From UHGV virus genome UHGV-0046270: a DNA stretch of 24,380 bases; one strand, 5' to 3'. The notes below the pieces were generated by a model, which worked only from the letters and a program-made list of their open reading frames with translations, was not told where the DNA came from and did no database searches. A program made the position numbers and the translations under genes. Origin of the DNA: a virus. This document shows, piece by piece, positions 10,032-23,232 of this stretch. Numbering within the stretch: the stretch's first letter is position 1; the number at the start of each line of letters is the position of its first letter.

Positions 10032-10784
10032 TTATGCTGCAAGTCTCTTAACCCAAGTCTCTCTTTTGGAGAATGGTAGAACTTGGCTTGATTCATGGAA
10101 GAGTAAGGAGAGTTGTTGCATTTGATCACCAATTGCTTCGCTGTCTATAACAACAAATCTGTTGTTATACTCCTCACTTGAAGCTTTAAGATCAATTAGT
10201 TTCCCAAGCAATGAGTAAGCACTATTCCAGCTTCCTCCGTGTTTCACGCTTGATGTAAAAACGTATTTAGGTATGTCGGTTTTTATTGTTACAGGGACGG
10301 TAATTTGATGTCCACTCAAGCCATATACGTTTTCACGAAGAGAAAGTGCGTCTCTAAGCTCTGTGTGATATAGATAATCAATAACCATACTTTCAAACTT
10401 TTCAGCTTGAACTGGCTGATACCAGTCTAACGACAAAGTTGATGCGAGTATACCAGCTCTAATTATGTTCGATGTAATCGCACCGACATCCTTTTCTGTT
10501 GCCCAAGCAATGATTTCTCCTCGAGCATTGAGTTCTGCGCCTTCTTTAAGCAGTAATTGTCGTATCTCATCAAGTCGTTTTTTGGTAAGCGAGATCCCTC
10601 TTGCCTCCATATTCATTAAGGCATCGCATCTGTCACTAACTAAATACCTACCATTGACTTCACGGATAAAGGCACCGACATGCTCTCCATCATCACAGTA
10701 AGTGAATGGACTGATAATTCTCAAGGTCTTGCCTATTGGATGGCATTCGAAACCTAGTTGTGAGATCACTGTTGAGCACATCAT
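10032..10784 (-). CDS. Hypothetical protein (250 aa), distal gene of the immunity-region cassette
   Basis: Long ORF in AT-rich DNA; start overlaps the upstream stop (ATGA); no Walker or other catalytic motif recognised. Confidence 0.6.
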   Translation of the reverse strand: MMCSTVISQLGFECHPIGKTLRIISPFTYCDDGEHVGAFIREVNGRYLVSDRCDALMNMEARGISLTKKRLDEIRQLLLKEGAELNARGEIIAWATEKDVGAITSNIIRAGILASTLSLDWYQPVQAEKFESMVIDYLYHTELRDALSLRENVYGLSGHQITVPVTIKTDIPKYVFTSSVKHGGSWNSAYSLLGKLIDLKASSEEYNNRFVVIDSEAIGDQMQQLSLLFHESSQVLPFSKRETWVKRLAA

Positions 10785-11338
10785 ATTCCAAACCCCATTT
10801 GCCCCGACTCATCTTCAAGCGGTAAAGGTATTCTCCCAGAGTAAGTTATGTTCAGATGTTTACAGAAGTAATTCCAATACCCTACCAGGTCATCTGGGTT
10901 TATGTCATCTTCGATTGGAAACGCTATTCTATCACTATAGTATCCAGCTTCTTCATAGTATACATGGTAGTGAGCACCGTAAATGATATCTTGGTACTTC
11001 GGATGATCGACCTTGTAACTATTCGTGTGTTTGTCAAAGTGATAGGTATCTACCGCGAAAACCCTCTTGTTATGATAGAAAGCAATAATATTTATTTTAG
11101 GGTAAGAAATCGGGTCATCAGGTTCTGAATCCTGATCTGGTTTCCATTTCAGTTCAAACTTTAGCCCTTGTATAGGTATACAATCCTCATCCAAGGGGAT
11201 GATATGGGCTTGTAGCCACATATCAGAGCGACTTGGTTTCTGTTTCCATTTAACGCCAGAAAAGTTAACTATTTTTTTACAATAAAGTACTTTATCAACT
11301 TCTACTTGGCTTGGCTGATAATCATCTATTTTTGCCAA
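10781..11338 (-). CDS. Hypothetical protein (185 aa), proximal gene of the immunity-region cassette
   Basis: Long ORF starting 39 nt downstream of the cI stop; aromatic/acidic-rich; no recognised domain. Confidence 0.6.
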   Translation of the reverse strand: MAKIDDYQPSQVEVDKVLYCKKIVNFSGVKWKQKPSRSDMWLQAHIIPLDEDCIPIQGLKFELKWKPDQDSEPDDPISYPKINIIAFYHNKRVFAVDTYHFDKHTNSYKVDHPKYQDIIYGAHYHVYYEEAGYYSDRIAFPIEDDINPDDLVGYWNYFCKHLNITYSGRIPLPLEDESGQMGFGI

Positions 11339-17449: not shown

Positions 17450-17615
17450 TATGCAATTGTTTACTAAAAGTTATTAAAAATGGGGCGTGGAAACGCCCCC
17501 AAAATAAAGGGTAATATATAACAGAAGGTTTATATAGTCAGAAGCAAGATAGTGCTTCTAAGGAAAGTGGCTTGAGGGGGCCACTTATATGTTGGGGGGG
17601 GGAAAACCCCCCCCA

Positions 17616-17625
17616 NNNNNNNNNN
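17616..17625. other. Assembly gap (10 N) flanked by a degraded duplicate of the downstream ~95 bp
   Basis: N run read directly; 17505-17615 is near-identical to 17626-17722 with homopolymer-like differences. Confidence 0.9.
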
Positions 17626-17709
17626 TAAAGGGTAATATATAACAGAAGGTTTATATAGTAAGAAGCAAGGTAGTGCTTCTAAAGGAAGTGGCTTGAGGGC
17701 TCCACTTAT

Positions 17710-17748
17710 ATGTTGCGGAGGCAAAGCCTCCCGCAACATATCTTTTTC
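17710..17748 (+). terminator. tR'-like intrinsic terminator downstream of Q
   Basis: Perfect 13/14-bp stem atgttgcggaggc-aaa-gcctcccgcaacat followed by tcttttt. Confidence 0.6.
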
Positions 17749-17758
17749 GTAAGTCAGA

Positions 17759-18841
17759 TTAGAACTGATAAACCAGACCTACAGCGACGATGTCGTCGGT
17801 ATCAATACCAGCTGTTTTGGTAAACTTACTATCGTCAATTAAGTTGATTTTGTAATCAACAAAAGTGGACATGTTTTTATTAAAGTAGTAAGTAGCACCG
17901 ACATCGACATACTTGACTAAGTCTCGGTCACCATGAACACCAAGGTCTTTACCTTTTGACTGAAGGTAAGCAACAGATGGACGCAGACCGAAGTCAAACT
18001 GATATTGTGCTACTGCTTCAAAGTTTTGTGCTTTGTTTGCAATATGGTTATTACCAAAAACGGTCATATTCTGAGTTTCAGAATATGTGGTAGCCAGATA
18101 GATATTGTTCGCATCATATTTCAGGCCTGCAGCCCATACTTCCGCATTTTTGCCGGAGGCATTGAATTTGCTCTTACCATAGGCGACCTGACCGTCAGTG
18201 CGATCTGATTTAGCATAGGTTGCACCCACGCCGAATCCTTCATACTCATAAGTAGTGGAGAAACCGAAACCATCACCGTTAGCTTCAGTTACGTCAGTGC
18301 GGTCATTTTTACCCTGATACTGAGCAGCAAAGTTCAGGCCATCGACCAGACCAAAGAAGTCGTTGTTACGATAAGTTGCAACACCAGTAGTGCGACCAGT
18401 CATGAACACATCTGTTTGGGTCCAGGTATCACCACCGAATTCTGGCAGAACGTCAGTCCACGCACCGATGTCGTATGCTACACCGTAGTTACGGCCGTAA
18501 TCGATTGAGCCGTAATCACCAAATTTCAGGCCTGCAAATGCAAGACGGGTTTTGTCTTTGGAAGAACCTTGAGATTCAGCACGGTTGCCTTTGAATTCAT
18601 ATTCCCACTGACCGAAACCAGTCAGTTGATCGTTGATTTGGGTTTCACCTTTGAAGCCAAGACGGGCATAAGTAGTATCACCATCATCTGCATCATTAGA
18701 GGAGAAGTAGTGCTTGGCATTAACTTTCCCGTATAGATCCAGCTTGTTACTGTCTTTATTATAAATTTCAGCTGCCTGAGCAGACATCGCCATCAGTACT
18801 GATGCAGCTACAGCAGAAATTGCCACTGTTAATTTTTTCAT
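17759..18841 (-). CDS. nmpC: OmpC/OmpF-family outer-membrane porin (prophage NmpC/Lc-type)
   Basis: Signal peptide [30 protein letters not shown] mature N-terminus, C-terminal ...VGLVYQF; AAGGG SD before ATG 18841; location between Q and the lysis genes as in DLP12. Confidence 0.85.
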
Positions 18842-19429: not shown

Positions 19430-19645
19430 ATGAAATCCATGGATAAGTTAACAACGGGTGTCGCCTATGGTACCTCAGCAGGTAGTGCCGGGTACTGGTT
19501 TTTACAGTTGCTCGATAAAGTCACGCCCTCACAGTGGGCGGCAATAGGTGTGCTGGGTAGCCTGGTATTTGGCCTGCTGACGTACCTGACAAACCTTTAT
19601 TTCAAGATTAAAGAAGATAAGCGCAAGGCTGCGAGAGGTGAATAA
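19430..19645 (+). CDS. S: Class II holin/antiholin (phage 21 S-type pinholin), dual-start MKSM
   Basis: 71 aa [71 protein letters not shown]; closely resembles S21. Confidence 0.9.
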
Positions 19646-20142
19646 TGCCTCCATCATTACGAAAAGCCGTTGCTGCTGCTATTGGTGGCGGAGCAATTGC
19701 TATAGCATCAGTGTTAATCACTGGCCCAAGTGGTAACGATGGTCTGGAAGGTGTCAGCTACATACCATACAAAGATATTGTTGGTGTATGGACTGTATGT
19801 CACGGGCATACAGGAAAAGACATCATGCTCGGTAAAACGTATACCAAAGCAGAATGCAAAGCCCTCCTGAATAAAGACCTTGCCACGGTCGCCAGACAAA
19901 TTAACCCGTACATCAAAGTCGATATACCGGAAACAATGCGCGGCGCTCTTTACTCATTCGTTTACAACGTGGGTGCTGGCAATTTCAGAACATCGACGCT
20001 TCTTCGCAAAATAAACCAGGGCGATATCAAAGGCGCATGTGATCAGCTACGTCGCTGGACATATGCTGGCGGTAAGCAATGGAAAGGTCTCATGACTCGT
20101 CGTGAGATTGAGCGTGAAATCTGTTTGTGGGGTCAGCAATGA
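19645..20142 (+). CDS. R: SAR endolysin (phage 21 R-type lysozyme)
   Basis: 165 aa with N-terminal Gly/Ala-rich signal-anchor-release segment ([18 protein letters not shown]) and lysozyme core; start overlaps the holin stop. Confidence 0.9.
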
Positions 20143-20600
20143 ACAGAGTAACCGCGATTATCTCCGCTCTGGTTATCTGCATCATCGTCTGCCTGTCATG
20201 GGCTGTTAATCATTACCGCGATAACGCCATTACCTACAAAGCCCAGCGCGACAAAAATGTCAGAGAACTGAAGCTGGCGAACGCGGCAATTACTGACATG
20301 CAGATGCGTCAGCGTGATGTTGCTGCGCTCGATGCAAAATACACGAAGGAGTTAGCTGATGCGAAAGCTGAAAATGATGCTCTGCGTGATGATGTTGCCG
20401 CTGGTCGTCGTCGGTTGCACATCAAAGCAGTCTGTCAGTCAGTGCGTGAAGCCACCACCGCCTCCGGCGTGGATAATGCAGCCTCCCCCCGACTGGCAGA
20501 CACCGCTGAACGGGATTATTTCACCCTCAGAGAGAGGCTGATCACTATGCAAAAACAACTGGAAGGAACCCAGAAGTATATTAATGAGCAGTGCAGATAG
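20139..20600 (+). CDS. Rz: Rz i-spanin
   Basis: 153 aa from ATG overlapping the R stop; N-terminal TM then coiled-coil. Confidence 0.8.
20359..20541 (+). CDS. Rz1: Rz1 o-spanin lipoprotein embedded in Rz (+1 frame)
   Basis: 60 aa with lipobox LVVVGC and Pro-rich body ([16 protein letters not shown]), wholly inside Rz. Confidence 0.75.
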
Positions 20601-20631: not shown

Positions 20632-20925
20632 TTATTGTGAGCAATACACACGCGCTTCCAGCGGAGTATAAATGCCTAAAGTAATAAAACCGAGCAATCC
20701 ATTTACGAATGTTTGCTGGGTTTCTGTTTTAACAACATTTTCTGCACCACCACAAATTTTTGCTGCATCGACAGTTTTCTTCTGCCCAATTCCCGAAACG
20801 AAGAAATGATGGGTGATGGTTTCCTTTGGTGTTACTGCTGTAGGTTTGTTTCCAACAGTAAACGTCTGTTGAGCACATCCTGTAATAAGCATTGCCAGAG
20901 CGGCAGAAAACAACATTTTTTTCAT
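20632..20925 (-). CDS. bor: Bor lipoprotein (serum resistance)
   Basis: 97 aa from MKKMLFSAALAMLITGCAQQTFTV...; remainder matches remembered lambda Bor. Confidence 0.9.
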   Translation of the reverse strand: MKKMLFSAALAMLITGCAQQTFTVGNKPTAVTPKETITHHFFVSGIGQKKTVDAAKICGGAENVVKTETQQTFVNGLLGFITLGIYTPLEARVYCSQ

Positions 20926-21405
20926 CTTATTATCCTGCATTGTTAAAAACGGCAGAATCCTATGTGACAACAATTAAACGATAGTTAAATGGATTGATGA
21001 AAATTAAAACTACACAGGTGGGCTCAGACTATTGGAGGAAGTTGGGGACACTCAGAATCCTGTGGAATGAAATAAACCGGTCTATCCGTCCATTACCCTT
21101 TTAGCTGCGCTGTATCGTCGCCGTATTCCCGCATTAACCATGACCGTAGCCCGACGGGGAATTCCTTCTGCGTGAGTGTGCGGGAATAATTAAAAACGAT
21201 GCACACCGGGTTTTTACCGCGTTAATGATTCGCGGGTTTATCCCGGTGCGATGGTGGAAGAAACAGGAAGCTGTATTACAGAAAGTGCTACTACTGTATC
21301 CCGATGCGATGTATGTAATGTGAGTCAGATAATGGCACAGGATGTGGTGATGTGGCAGTCTGGAACACAGGATATATTGTCAGAATAAGACCCGTAGGAA
21401 TAAAA

Positions 21406-21732
21406 ATGAAAAGACGCCTTTTACTACTTTTTCTGTTATCTGTCCTGGCAGTGGGATGCTCGCAGCAAAAAGCTGATGAGCCCCGGCAATTAGTGACGGT
21501 GTATCCACGATATCCGGAATATGCTGCAGCAAATTATATCAAGGGGCTGGTTGAGGTTAAGTTCGATATTGGTGCTGATGGGACTGTGACACGGATCGTT
21601 TTTCTCCGCTCAGAGCCTCATAATTTGTTTCGTGATGAAGTGGTGAAGGCCATGGCGAAATGGCGATTTGAAAAGAATCGCCCCTGTCAGGGAGTGAAGA
21701 GACAATTTATCTTTACGCCGTCACGTCCTTGA
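21406..21732 (+). CDS. Lipoprotein with TonB C-terminal-like domain
   Basis: 108 aa; AGGAA SD; lipobox LAVGC; YPRYPEYAAANYIKGLVEVKFDIGADGTVTRIVFLRSEPHNLFRDEVVKAMAKWRF aligns with E. coli TonB C-domain (YPARAQALRIEGQVKVKFDVTPDGRV...FEREVKNAMRRWRY). Confidence 0.7.
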   Translation: MKRRLLLLFLLSVLAVGCSQQKADEPRQLVTVYPRYPEYAAANYIKGLVEVKFDIGADGTVTRIVFLRSEPHNLFRDEVVKAMAKWRFEKNRPCQGVKRQFIFTPSRP

Positions 21733-21854
21733 TGCTTCCAGGTAGAGAGGGGCTGGAAGCAGGAGAAAAATGAAAGAGCCAGCGGTTATATTTTTGTCAT
21801 GGCTGACGAGGAATGATGGAAGAAGGCGTTGTATGCCACACAACGCCTCACTGT

Positions 21855-22208
21855 TCATTTCTTCTTTTTCTCTGGTGGAACCCGATGAATAAGAGTTGCA
21901 CTGGTTTCCGATGAGATGGCGATATACTCGGGCAAAGTATGCTGGCAGTTTTCCAACTGGTCAAAAATACCTGCTCTCGTCTGTTGCAATGCCTGCAGCA
22001 TGCGGCGGCAATGCGCCTTGCTTTTACTAACCATCTTTCCTTCCTCTATCAGTCGCTGCGTGAACTCATCATGGAATACCAGGTAAATGCGGATGTTATC
22101 GGTTTTGGCTACGCAGCATAGTACAAAACGGACAGGTGCATCCCGGGACGGGGGAGGCGTCACATGTCCCTGTGATGGTTGTTCCGGGTAATGTACTGTG
22201 TGGGGCAT
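21855..22208 (-). CDS. Hypothetical ORF (start uncertain; may be shorter)
   Basis: ORF only; overlaps the neighbouring ORF by 113 nt, so an internal start such as Met at 22034 is likely if real. Confidence 0.25.
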   Translation of the reverse strand: MPHTVHYPEQPSQGHVTPPPSRDAPVRFVLCCVAKTDNIRIYLVFHDEFTQRLIEEGKMVSKSKAHCRRMLQALQQTRAGIFDQLENCQHTLPEYIAISSETSATLIHRVPPEKKKK

Positions 22209-22347
22209 AAAAATGTCCGATAATTTTACTTTCTACCGCAGTTAGTTGATTCGTTGGTCCTGGTAGCACATTGGGCGAGGATTTAAATGCCAGGCAACTG
22301 AAGGATGATGTCGCAAGGGAGATAGCGAGAATATTTCTGATTTTCAT
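22096..22347 (-). CDS. Hypothetical small secreted protein (83 aa from internal Met)
   Basis: MKIRNILAISLATSSFSCLAFK signal-peptide-like N-terminus; Cys-rich C-terminus. Confidence 0.35.
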   Translation of the reverse strand: MKIRNILAISLATSSFSCLAFKSSPNVLPGPTNQLTAVESKIIGHFYAPHSTLPGTTITGTCDASPVPGCTCPFCTMLRSQNR

Positions 22348-22495
22348 TTGATGATGCCTCTGTGTGAAATGACGGTAAACGACGCACTTGTGCCGGCACA
22401 TAATAGCAAGCACCATAATAGATCAGATTCGATTCTTGCTGTAAGTGATAATTATTCTCGTTTTCGGGTCCTTTCCGTCGATCCAACAGGTTACG

Positions 22496-22683: not shown

Positions 22684-23232
22684 ATGAAGGTTAATAAAAA
22701 GAGGCTTGCCGAAATTTTCAACGTGGACCCGCGGACGATTGAACGCTGGCAGTCTCAGGGACTCCCTTGCGCCTCCAAAGGTAGTAAGGGCATTGAATCT
22801 GTATTTGATACTGCCATGGCAATTCAGTGGTATGCGCAGAGGGAAACTGATATCGAAAACGAAAAGCTCCGCAAAGAACTGGACGATTTGCGTGCGGCAG
22901 CGGAGTCAGATTTACAACCCGGCACCATTGACTATGAACGCTACCGGCTCACAAAAGCGCAGGCAGATGCGCAGGAACTGAAAAATGCCCGTGAAGACGG
23001 AGTAGTGCTGGAAACTGAACTGTTTACCTTCATTCTGCAACGTGTGGCACAGGAGATTTCGGGGATACTTGTGCGTGTGCCGTTGACATTACAGCGTAAA
23101 TATCCGGACATTTCACCATCACACCTTGATGTGGTGAAAACTGAAATCGCGAAAGCCTCCAATGTTGCAGCTAAGGCCGGTGAAAACGTGGGCGGGTGGA
23201 TCGATGATTTCAGACGCGCAGAAGGCAGCTAA
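22684..23232 (+). CDS. nu1: Terminase small subunit (Nu1)
   Basis: 182 aa [28 protein letters not shown]...[48 protein letters not shown] closely parallels lambda Nu1. Confidence 0.9.

Follow-up and report, generated by a model that had tools for sequence, protein, structure and literature searches.

A prophage lipoprotein consisting of a stand-alone TonB C-terminal domain, and its possible action as a decoy for TonB-dependent receptors

We analysed a stretch of 24,380 nucleotides from the virus genome UHGV-0046270 (the whole of this stretch is called the window below), and in it a gene for a small lipoprotein that carries a single TonB C-terminal domain (the TonB_C lipoprotein). The window is a lambdoid prophage of the phage 21 type, with 99.9% identity to Escherichia phage PhiR57_1; ev017 and classical phage 21 are also close. 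The open reading frame (ORF) of the gene runs from an ATG at 21406 to a TGA at 21730-21732. An earlier note, made from the letters of the window, had described a lipoprotein of 108 amino acids (aa) with the lipobox LAVGC, encoded by a separate plus-strand gene beside bor (20632-20925, minus strand) with its own Shine-Dalgarno sequence, and each of these points is found in the sequence. The gene is already annotated in public records ('TonB family protein', 'TonB fragment'), and a function would be the new part. Its components are as follows.

21396-21399, plus strand: Shine-Dalgarno sequence AGGA, 6 nt 5' of the ATG; the same ribosome-binding site is annotated for CPT_21_73 in phage 21
21406-21732, plus strand, stop codon included: TonB_C lipoprotein gene, encoding a 108-aa prelipoprotein with one TonB_C domain
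21406-21459, plus strand: signal peptide and lipobox, aa 1-18 (MKRRLLLLFLLSVLAVGC), with the codon of Cys18 at 21457-21459, as read from the sequence
21460-21480, plus strand: linker of 7 residues, aa 19-25 (SQQKADE), which joins the domain to the lipidated Cys; the alignment with TonB begins at aa 23-26
21481-21717, plus strand: TonB C-terminal domain, aa 26-104, equivalent to TonB 153-231, from the AlphaFold2 (AF2) model and Foldseek

Based on profile searches, the protein matches the Pfam domain TonB_C (PF03544) over residues 33-99 with 49.2 bits (cut-off 24.6, E=7e-13) and TIGR01352 with 47.4 bits (cut-off 27.1). In a phmmer search against all PDB chains the structures of the Escherichia coli TonB C-terminal domain rank first, 1u07 with E=1.4e-14. 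Residues 24-103 align without gaps with residues 2-81 of the 1u07 chain, which are TonB 151-230, so that residue n of the lipoprotein corresponds to TonB n+127; the identity to the TonB C-terminal domain is 38-40% over 80 residues. The match to TonB is far beyond chance, and the stand-alone TonB C-terminal domain claimed in the earlier note is borne out by the PF03544 score and the ungapped alignment.

The protein belongs to the TonB_C domain family but is not a TonB. The equivalog models of full-length TonB (NCBIfam, PRK10819) give 45-69 bits against cut-offs of 265-448, and only about the last 85 profile positions match. The N-terminal inner-membrane anchor by which TonB is coupled to ExbB-ExbD is absent; the N-terminus is instead a cleavable lipoprotein signal, and the mature protein begins at the equivalent of TonB 145. 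Also absent is the Pro-rich spacer, only the seven residues of the linker lying between Cys18 and the domain. The lack of both anchor and spacer had been pointed out before, and it agrees with the equivalog scores.

Concerning the fold, an AF2 run with 7 near-identical sequences gave a predicted local distance difference test score (pLDDT) of 55 and was unusable; an alignment of 35 family sequences was used instead. The resulting model has a pLDDT of 86.8 overall and of 96-98 over the domain, and the pLDDT is low before residue ~25, in the linker. The order of elements is a short N-terminal strand, helix 1, strands 1 and 2, helix 2 and strand 3. Foldseek superposes the model on 1u07_A with a template modelling (TM) score of 0.91 and a root-mean-square deviation (rmsd) of 1.5 Å, and on TonB bound to BtuB (2gsk_B) and to FhuA (2grx_C) with rmsd values of 1.0 Å and 0.9 Å, respectively; over four E. 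coli TonB structures the rmsd is 0.9-1.5 Å. Structure prediction had been proposed in the earlier note as a check on the domain, and the TonB-C fold is present. A fold search of BFVD found no viral match to the model.

At the level of single residues, TonB Y163, P164, F180, G186, F202, W213 and F230 are unchanged and Y215 is replaced by Phe. The conserved YP motif and aromatic core are thus Y36, P37, F53, F75, W86, F88 and F103 in the numbering of the lipoprotein, and these conserved residues reportedly matter in the TonB mutagenesis of the Postle laboratory. TonB binds the TonB box of its partners as an added strand at the edge of strand 3. In the lipoprotein strand 3 is present (residues 97-104), together with the aromatic core Y36, F53, F75, W86, F88 and F103.

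The N-terminus of the TonB_C lipoprotein consists of MKRR, LLLLFLLSVLAV and G-C18, with the lipobox L-A-V-G-C followed by Ser19. It has a positive n-region, a hydrophobic h-region and a lipobox whose final Cys lies in the first ~30 residues, and it fits the PROSITE pattern PS51257. The lipoprotein signal is kept in both alleles described below and in most relatives: most of the short relatives checked have a lipobox with its Cys at 16-29 and no Asp at position +2, and their linkers are short. The Lol avoidance signal is absent, position +2 being Ser19; Asp was never seen after any lipobox found in the family, where the residue is mostly S, T or A. According to the +2 rule of the E. coli Lol system, a lipoprotein with Ser and not Asp at this position goes to the outer membrane. 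Because of its Ser at +2 the TonB_C lipoprotein is predicted to be sorted there, and accordingly to be anchored at the inner face of that membrane rather than free in the periplasm. Of the periplasmic TonB-C mimic suggested in the earlier note, the TonB-C fold stands; the freely periplasmic protein gives way to one with a predicted outer-membrane tether, given Ser+2 and the 7-residue linker.

The gene is 100% identical to CPT_21_73 of phage 21 and to the genes in ev017, PhiR47_2, PhiR57_1 and PhiR63_2, and 99.7% identical to LF82_160, the copy in the Perceval prophage of strain LF82. The earlier note had asked for the distribution across prophages. Of 5426 complete E. coli genomes, 1225 have close copies, Nissle 1917 and the type strain among them, and a genome has at most three; in 1221 of the 1225 carriers at least 80% of the gene length is covered, and among 80 viral loci at least 77 have the gene intact. 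A second allele, with a protein 70% and DNA 72% identical, is found in Stx1a phages, in JLK-2012 and in 415 complete E. coli genomes. A contig of 418 bp assigned to the actinobacterium Modestobacter excelsi (NZ_SJEX01000172.1) is also 100% identical to the gene and is almost certainly assembly contamination. The ratio of non-synonymous to synonymous substitution rates (dN/dS) between the two alleles is 0.12, with dS ~1.5, and the gene is under purifying selection; signal peptide, lipobox and length are kept in both. Comparison with the second allele, which has indels 5' of the Shine-Dalgarno sequence, disfavours the 126-aa form from an in-frame GTG at 21352 given in some records, and indels in that allele likewise disfavour a 45-aa ORF at 21251-21388 as a conserved coding sequence.

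The differences between the two alleles cluster in the equivalents of TonB 158-165 and 221-231 (10 of 19 positions vs 10 of 60 elsewhere, Fisher p=0.005; proportion of non-synonymous differences, pN, 0.29 vs 0.09), two segments that were chosen after the differences had been seen, and which are also surface segments. We take these two segments to face the TonB box. The clustered replacements are suggestive only of retargeting or of an arms race.

Relatives were collected by an exhaustive profile-free search of 1.84 billion representatives and by a profile search. They form a family of proteins of 104-133 aa with the same architecture in Pantoea, Erwinia, Serratia, Rahnella, Raoultella, Klebsiella and Sodalis, with 31-49% identity. 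All share the layout of the phage protein (signal peptide, usually a lipobox, a short linker and one TonB_C domain) and its motifs; the signature of the family, P.YP.YA..N, SEP.HLFD and KWRFE, is its own and unlike that of TonB. In a distance tree (neighbour-joining, no bootstrap) the phage alleles nest in the clade of small lipoproteins, apart from the enterobacterial TonB C-terminal domains. Unlike the phage alleles, many of the relatives are chromosomal orphans outside prophages: the one in Klebsiella adjoins lacZ-lacI and the Raoultella loci show a matching ORF layout, those of Pantoea stand amid metabolic genes with no phage genes near, and a further relative is found in a non-phage context in the chromosome AP025685. 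The family is therefore not phage-specific, and these relatives suggest a native cellular role that was borrowed by the phage.

The position of the gene within the prophages is constant. In the 80 loci from IMG/VR it always lies between the lysis cassette and the terminase, although the types of lysis and terminase genes are several, and the 44% identical relative in Sodalis occupies the same slot (lysozyme, TonB_C gene, terminase). The lipoprotein is thus a prophage lipoprotein, as the earlier note had it, without being a phage invention, since the family is also chromosomal in Klebsiella, Raoultella and Pantoea. In the window the slot is composed as follows.

19430-19645: pinholin S21
19645-20142: signal-anchor-release (SAR) endolysin
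20127-20600: Rz/Rz1
20632-20925, minus strand: bor (outer-membrane lipoprotein), the divergent neighbour, separated from the TonB_C gene by a gap of 480 bp
3' of the TonB_C gene, ~950 bp: poorly defined ORFs and the cos region
22684-23232: terminase small subunit

Published expression data from LF82 bear on the gene through its 99.7% identical copy. In LB the 'TonB fragment' LF82_160 of Perceval is expressed 8-fold over the silent prophage background (PMC9928086). Across all five conditions its log2(5+FPKM), where FPKM stands for fragments per kilobase per million mapped reads, is 5.0-6.6 (PMC9928086, supplementary table); that of the host tonB is 4.2-7.2, and that of the flanking Rz and terminase genes 2.3-4.3 (PMC9928086). 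The copy is thus transcribed in the lysogen with the genes on both sides near the floor, and the gene is a moron, transcribed in the lysogen independently of the surrounding late operon. That it is a functional moron encoding a stand-alone TonB_C lipoprotein we regard as close to certain.

For its mode of action the E. coli TonB C-terminal domain (~150-239; 1u07, 1xx3, 2gsk, 2grx) is the nearest point of comparison, having the same fold, YP motif, aromatic core and TonB-box-pairing strand 3. The lipoprotein differs from TonB in that it has neither membrane anchor nor Pro-rich rod and hence no coupling to ExbB-ExbD and the proton-motive force, in that its lipid anchor is predicted to sit in the outer membrane and not in the inner one, and in that it ends four residues sooner and has Q160, R158 and R166 replaced. 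By analogy we tentatively read it as an uncoupled decoy for TonB-dependent receptors. The mature part of ~90 aa would place one TonB C-terminal domain on a 7-residue tether at the inner leaflet of the outer membrane, level with the rims that TonB-dependent transporters turn to the periplasm. So short a linker would hold the domain against the inner face of the membrane, where the TonB boxes of the transporters emerge, and too far from the peptidoglycan and the inner membrane to reach ExbD. An exposed TonB-box strand could then be captured by addition to the edge of the β-sheet, as in TonB; such strands would be those of ligand-loaded transporters (FhuA, FepA, Cir, BtuB) or of incoming group B colicins. 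Without a link to ExbB-ExbD there would be no pulling, and the lipoprotein would thus be an uncoupled competitor of the scarce TonB. TonB-dependent entry of phages (of the T1/phi80 type), colicins, microcins and siderophores would be damped, and cells with the gene would be expected to tolerate TonB-dependent phages, group B colicins and microcins in part, while losing some siderophore and B12 uptake.

This mechanism is plausible because engineered periplasmic TonB fragments inhibit TonB-dependent transport. In the work of Howard, Herrmann, Stratilo and Braun (2001, J Bacteriol 183:5885; cited in PMC9841981), an anchorless C-terminal part of TonB was likewise placed in the periplasm, and transport via FhuA and FecA was reportedly inhibited; the overproduced domain is described in PMC9841981 as inhibiting iron import through TonB-dependent transporters. 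Those laboratory constructs were host TonB, soluble, overproduced and provided with a foreign signal peptide, whereas the prophage protein is natural, diverged, lipid-anchored and present at a moderate level. Killing by colicins and infection by phi80 are reportedly inhibited by a pentapeptide of the TonB box (Tuckman and Osburne 1992, likewise cited in PMC9841981). Transcription in the lysogen and the retained TonB residues lend the decoy further, indirect support. Another likeness is with Cor (phi80, N15, HK022) and Llp (T5), small phage outer-membrane lipoproteins that inactivate FhuA. They exclude other phages by acting on a TonB-dependent transporter from within the periplasm (PMC11436027, PMC9586334), and the TonB_C lipoprotein might by analogy do the same; Cor and Llp act on one receptor, whereas the reach of a TonB mimic would in principle extend to all proteins with a TonB box. 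Searches of Pfam, NCBIfam, PHROG and PDB with the lipoprotein returned TonB_C matches only and no match to Cor or Llp. The observation made in the earlier note is thus correct and its decoy interpretation reasonable but unproven, now refined by the predicted outer-membrane tether and the wider bacterial family; the outer-membrane location, the binding of TonB boxes and the phenotype we infer.

Several observations weigh against the decoy. On the side of the TonB box, the residue equivalent to Q160 is Tyr (Leu in the second allele), that equivalent to R166 is Tyr, and that equivalent to R158 is Thr (Lys in the second allele). In TonB, Q160, R158 and R166 face the TonB box, Q160 and R166 are tied to its recognition, and Q160 is the classical suppressor site for TonB-box mutations. 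With Q160 and R166 replaced, the target specificity may differ from that of TonB. The orphan chromosomal relatives in Klebsiella, Raoultella and Pantoea (31-49% identity) favour a general cellular role over a phage-specific weapon. The messenger RNA is at about the level of tonB, which makes a full blockade of the far more numerous transporters unlikely; transporters greatly outnumber TonB under iron limitation. Fewer molecules would be needed for competition at ligand-loaded receptors, for capture of colicin TonB boxes or for titration of TonB. Upstream of the gene no strong sigma-70 promoter was found, and no Fur box (the best match, 11/19, is within background); iron regulation was rejected on the latter ground and because expression in LF82 does not track tonB across conditions. 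PADLOC gave no match for the lipoprotein, and a literature search of open-access papers and preprints returned no functional, binding or phenotype study of the protein or its family.

The alternative that survives best is that the gene is a prophage copy of the chromosomal small TonB_C lipoproteins, with a housekeeping role at the outer membrane and no exclusion function; the protein would, for example, bind a specific non-transporter partner by β-strand addition or tune one transporter. We consider this rather unlikely, yet it accounts for much: the phage alleles nest in the clade of 104-133-aa lipoproteins found in non-phage contexts (beside lacZ-lacI in Klebsiella and Raoultella, in Pantoea, in AP025685), the signature of that family is distinct from that of TonB, and the residues Q160 and R166 facing the TonB box are not kept. 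A dedicated partner, however, finds no hint in a conserved neighbour, the copies in E. coli and Sodalis always lie between prophage lysis cassette and terminase, which is the classic slot for host conversion, and the fold fits TonB in its TonB-box-bound state at ~1 Å.

It is improbable that the lipoprotein acts on TonB itself, forming mixed dimers with its C-terminal domain and holding the few hundred TonB molecules inactive. TonB C-terminal fragments do crystallise as intertwined dimers (1ihr is among the phmmer matches in PDB), the aromatic core residues are kept, and a transcript at about the tonB level would suit one-to-one titration better than the blocking of more numerous transporters. 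The dimeric crystal structures, though, do not exist in vivo according to the title of PMC3005593; the form that the model fits best is the monomer-like one of TonB constructs of this length (150-239, 1u07); and the identity to TonB is only 38-40%.

A dead, functionless remnant of a captured host tonB, as the public labels 'partial tonB-like membrane protein' and 'TonB fragment' might imply, is contradicted by the signal peptide and lipobox that TonB lacks, by the dN/dS of 0.12 with saturated synonymous sites, by the clustering with small lipoproteins and not with enterobacterial TonB, by intactness in more than 1000 genomes and by transcription in lysogeny, and we give it next to no chance. 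Just as remote is a lysis protein: PHROG 1267, which the protein matches with E=5e-43, is labelled 'Rz-like spanin' and an outer-membrane-type lipoprotein just after the lysis cassette would suit a spanin, but the complete Rz/Rz1 pair is already present 800 bp before this separate gene with bor lying between on the other strand, transcription of the gene coincides with silence of the lysis genes, and the protein has a globular TonB_C domain with neither the Pro-rich Rz1-like sequence of an o-spanin, whose gene is embedded in or overlaps that of the i-spanin, nor the hydrophobic C-terminal membrane segment of a u-spanin. The label of PHROG 1267 is a mislabel. The words 'Rz-like spanin' also appear in the RefSeq record of an Stx1 phage, NC_004913.3, at 58327-58572, for an ORF beyond bor and apart from that phage's own Rz and Rz1.

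Returning to the decoy, its broadest form would be a natural 'anti-TonB': a TonB-domain decoy tethered at the outer membrane that lowers the sensitivity of its host to all TonB-dependent invaders at once, in at most ~30% of sequenced E. coli. We consider this form doubtful; the ~30% is an upper figure, as the two alleles may co-occur in some genomes, and it takes in Nissle 1917, LF82 and the type strain. The invaders would be phages like T1 and phi80, group B colicins and microcins that mimic siderophores; rapid change of residues on the face towards the TonB box would be the mark of an arms race or of retargeting, and in the phage 21 lineage the cost in iron would be balanced by the SitABCD manganese/iron importer of the prophage. 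Many coliphages, colicins, microcins and siderophore-antibiotic conjugates (cefiderocol-type drugs) enter the cell through TonB-dependent transporters. If the decoy is real, it would be a new and broad kind of prophage-conferred protection that mimics a part of a host machine and does not block one receptor; it could explain differences between strains in their sensitivity to phages, colicins and 'Trojan horse' antibiotics, and it would provide a natural tool to probe the engagement of transporters by TonB. It also offers a first lead to the function of the small TonB_C lipoproteins of Enterobacterales, an unstudied family.

Concerning the flanks of the gene, a lysogen-active promoter must lie upstream, since transcripts of the gene are present when the late genes on either side are silent. 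Two segments of that region and one 3' of the gene can be listed.

21103-21214: intergenic segment common to lambda and HK630, where it holds the minus-strand bor promoter; 83-84% identical to lambda, HK630 and Stx phages
21328-21333, plus strand: candidate -10 hexamer GATAAT, proposed as the sole promoter-like hexamer kept in both alleles in a stretch that has otherwise diverged
21735-21759, plus strand: hairpin with a 7-bp stem (CTTCCAG/CTGGAAG), a loop of 11 nt and no T tract, read from the sequence

The -35 element that pairs with GATAAT is weak. No terminator was found for the gene, and the hairpin is not called by the terminator scan. The segment at 21103-21214 is also found 5' of the second allele, where bor is missing, and the two alleles are ~88% alike over 21105-21290 (~190 nt) vs 72% of nucleotides in the coding sequence. 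An RNA leader or riboswitch was considered here and rejected: the stretch 21103-21290 has no Rfam match, the folding z-score of the 316-nt stretch 21095-21410 is -1.7, which is not unusual, and the left 110 nt are the bor-promoter segment of lambda. The conservation of 21105-21290 is best read as mosaic history and not as a dedicated leader. The best Fur-box matches in the window (14-15/19) are at 22441-22465, beside the cos region, and at 10367-10385, and are probably due to chance in AT-rich sequence. As for bor itself, about half of the 80 related viral loci lack it beside the TonB_C gene; the two genes are therefore not an obligate pair, and a functional link between them was rejected.

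Between the hairpin and the terminase, ORF calls overlap on both strands at 21770-22416 and different ones are annotated in public records.

21855-22208, minus strand: ORF matching PHROG 4843
21939-22121, plus strand: ORF matching PHROG 3744
22096-22416, minus strand: ORF with the signal-peptide-like sequence MKIRNILAISLATSSFSCLA inside

The two minus-strand ORFs accompany the TonB_C gene in most related loci.

The phage carries four cargo units that concern envelope or transport: a porin, Bor, the TonB_C lipoprotein and SitABCD. The porin gene (OmpD/NmpC-like) lies at ~17.7-18.9 kb of the window on the minus strand (PhiR57_1 17589-18731), between Q and the lysis genes; in LF82 it is listed as expressed in lysogeny, 10-fold over background (PMC9928086). 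The sitABCD manganese/iron importer of the same lineage lies outside the window, at 44298-47747 in PhiR57_1 and at 21967-25416 in phage 21. All seven phage records that carry the first allele have sit and the phages with the second are not among the sit-carrying records, but the former are one lineage and hence no independent association, and a functional link between the TonB_C gene and sitABCD was rejected. Between cI and N, in the position of rexAB in lambda, two minus-strand genes (10032-10784 and 10781-11338) match the PADLOC candidate defence system PDC-M24 (M24B E=5e-10, M24A E=5e-4) and the Pfam families DUF1828 and DUF6978, the latter below its cut-off; the pair may form a defence cassette of the prophage. 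At its receptor-binding end (PhiR57_1 41003-41503) the central tail fibre J shares 99% identity with its counterpart in phage 21 but only 48% with the one in lambda, and the phage probably uses the receptor of phage 21 rather than LamB.

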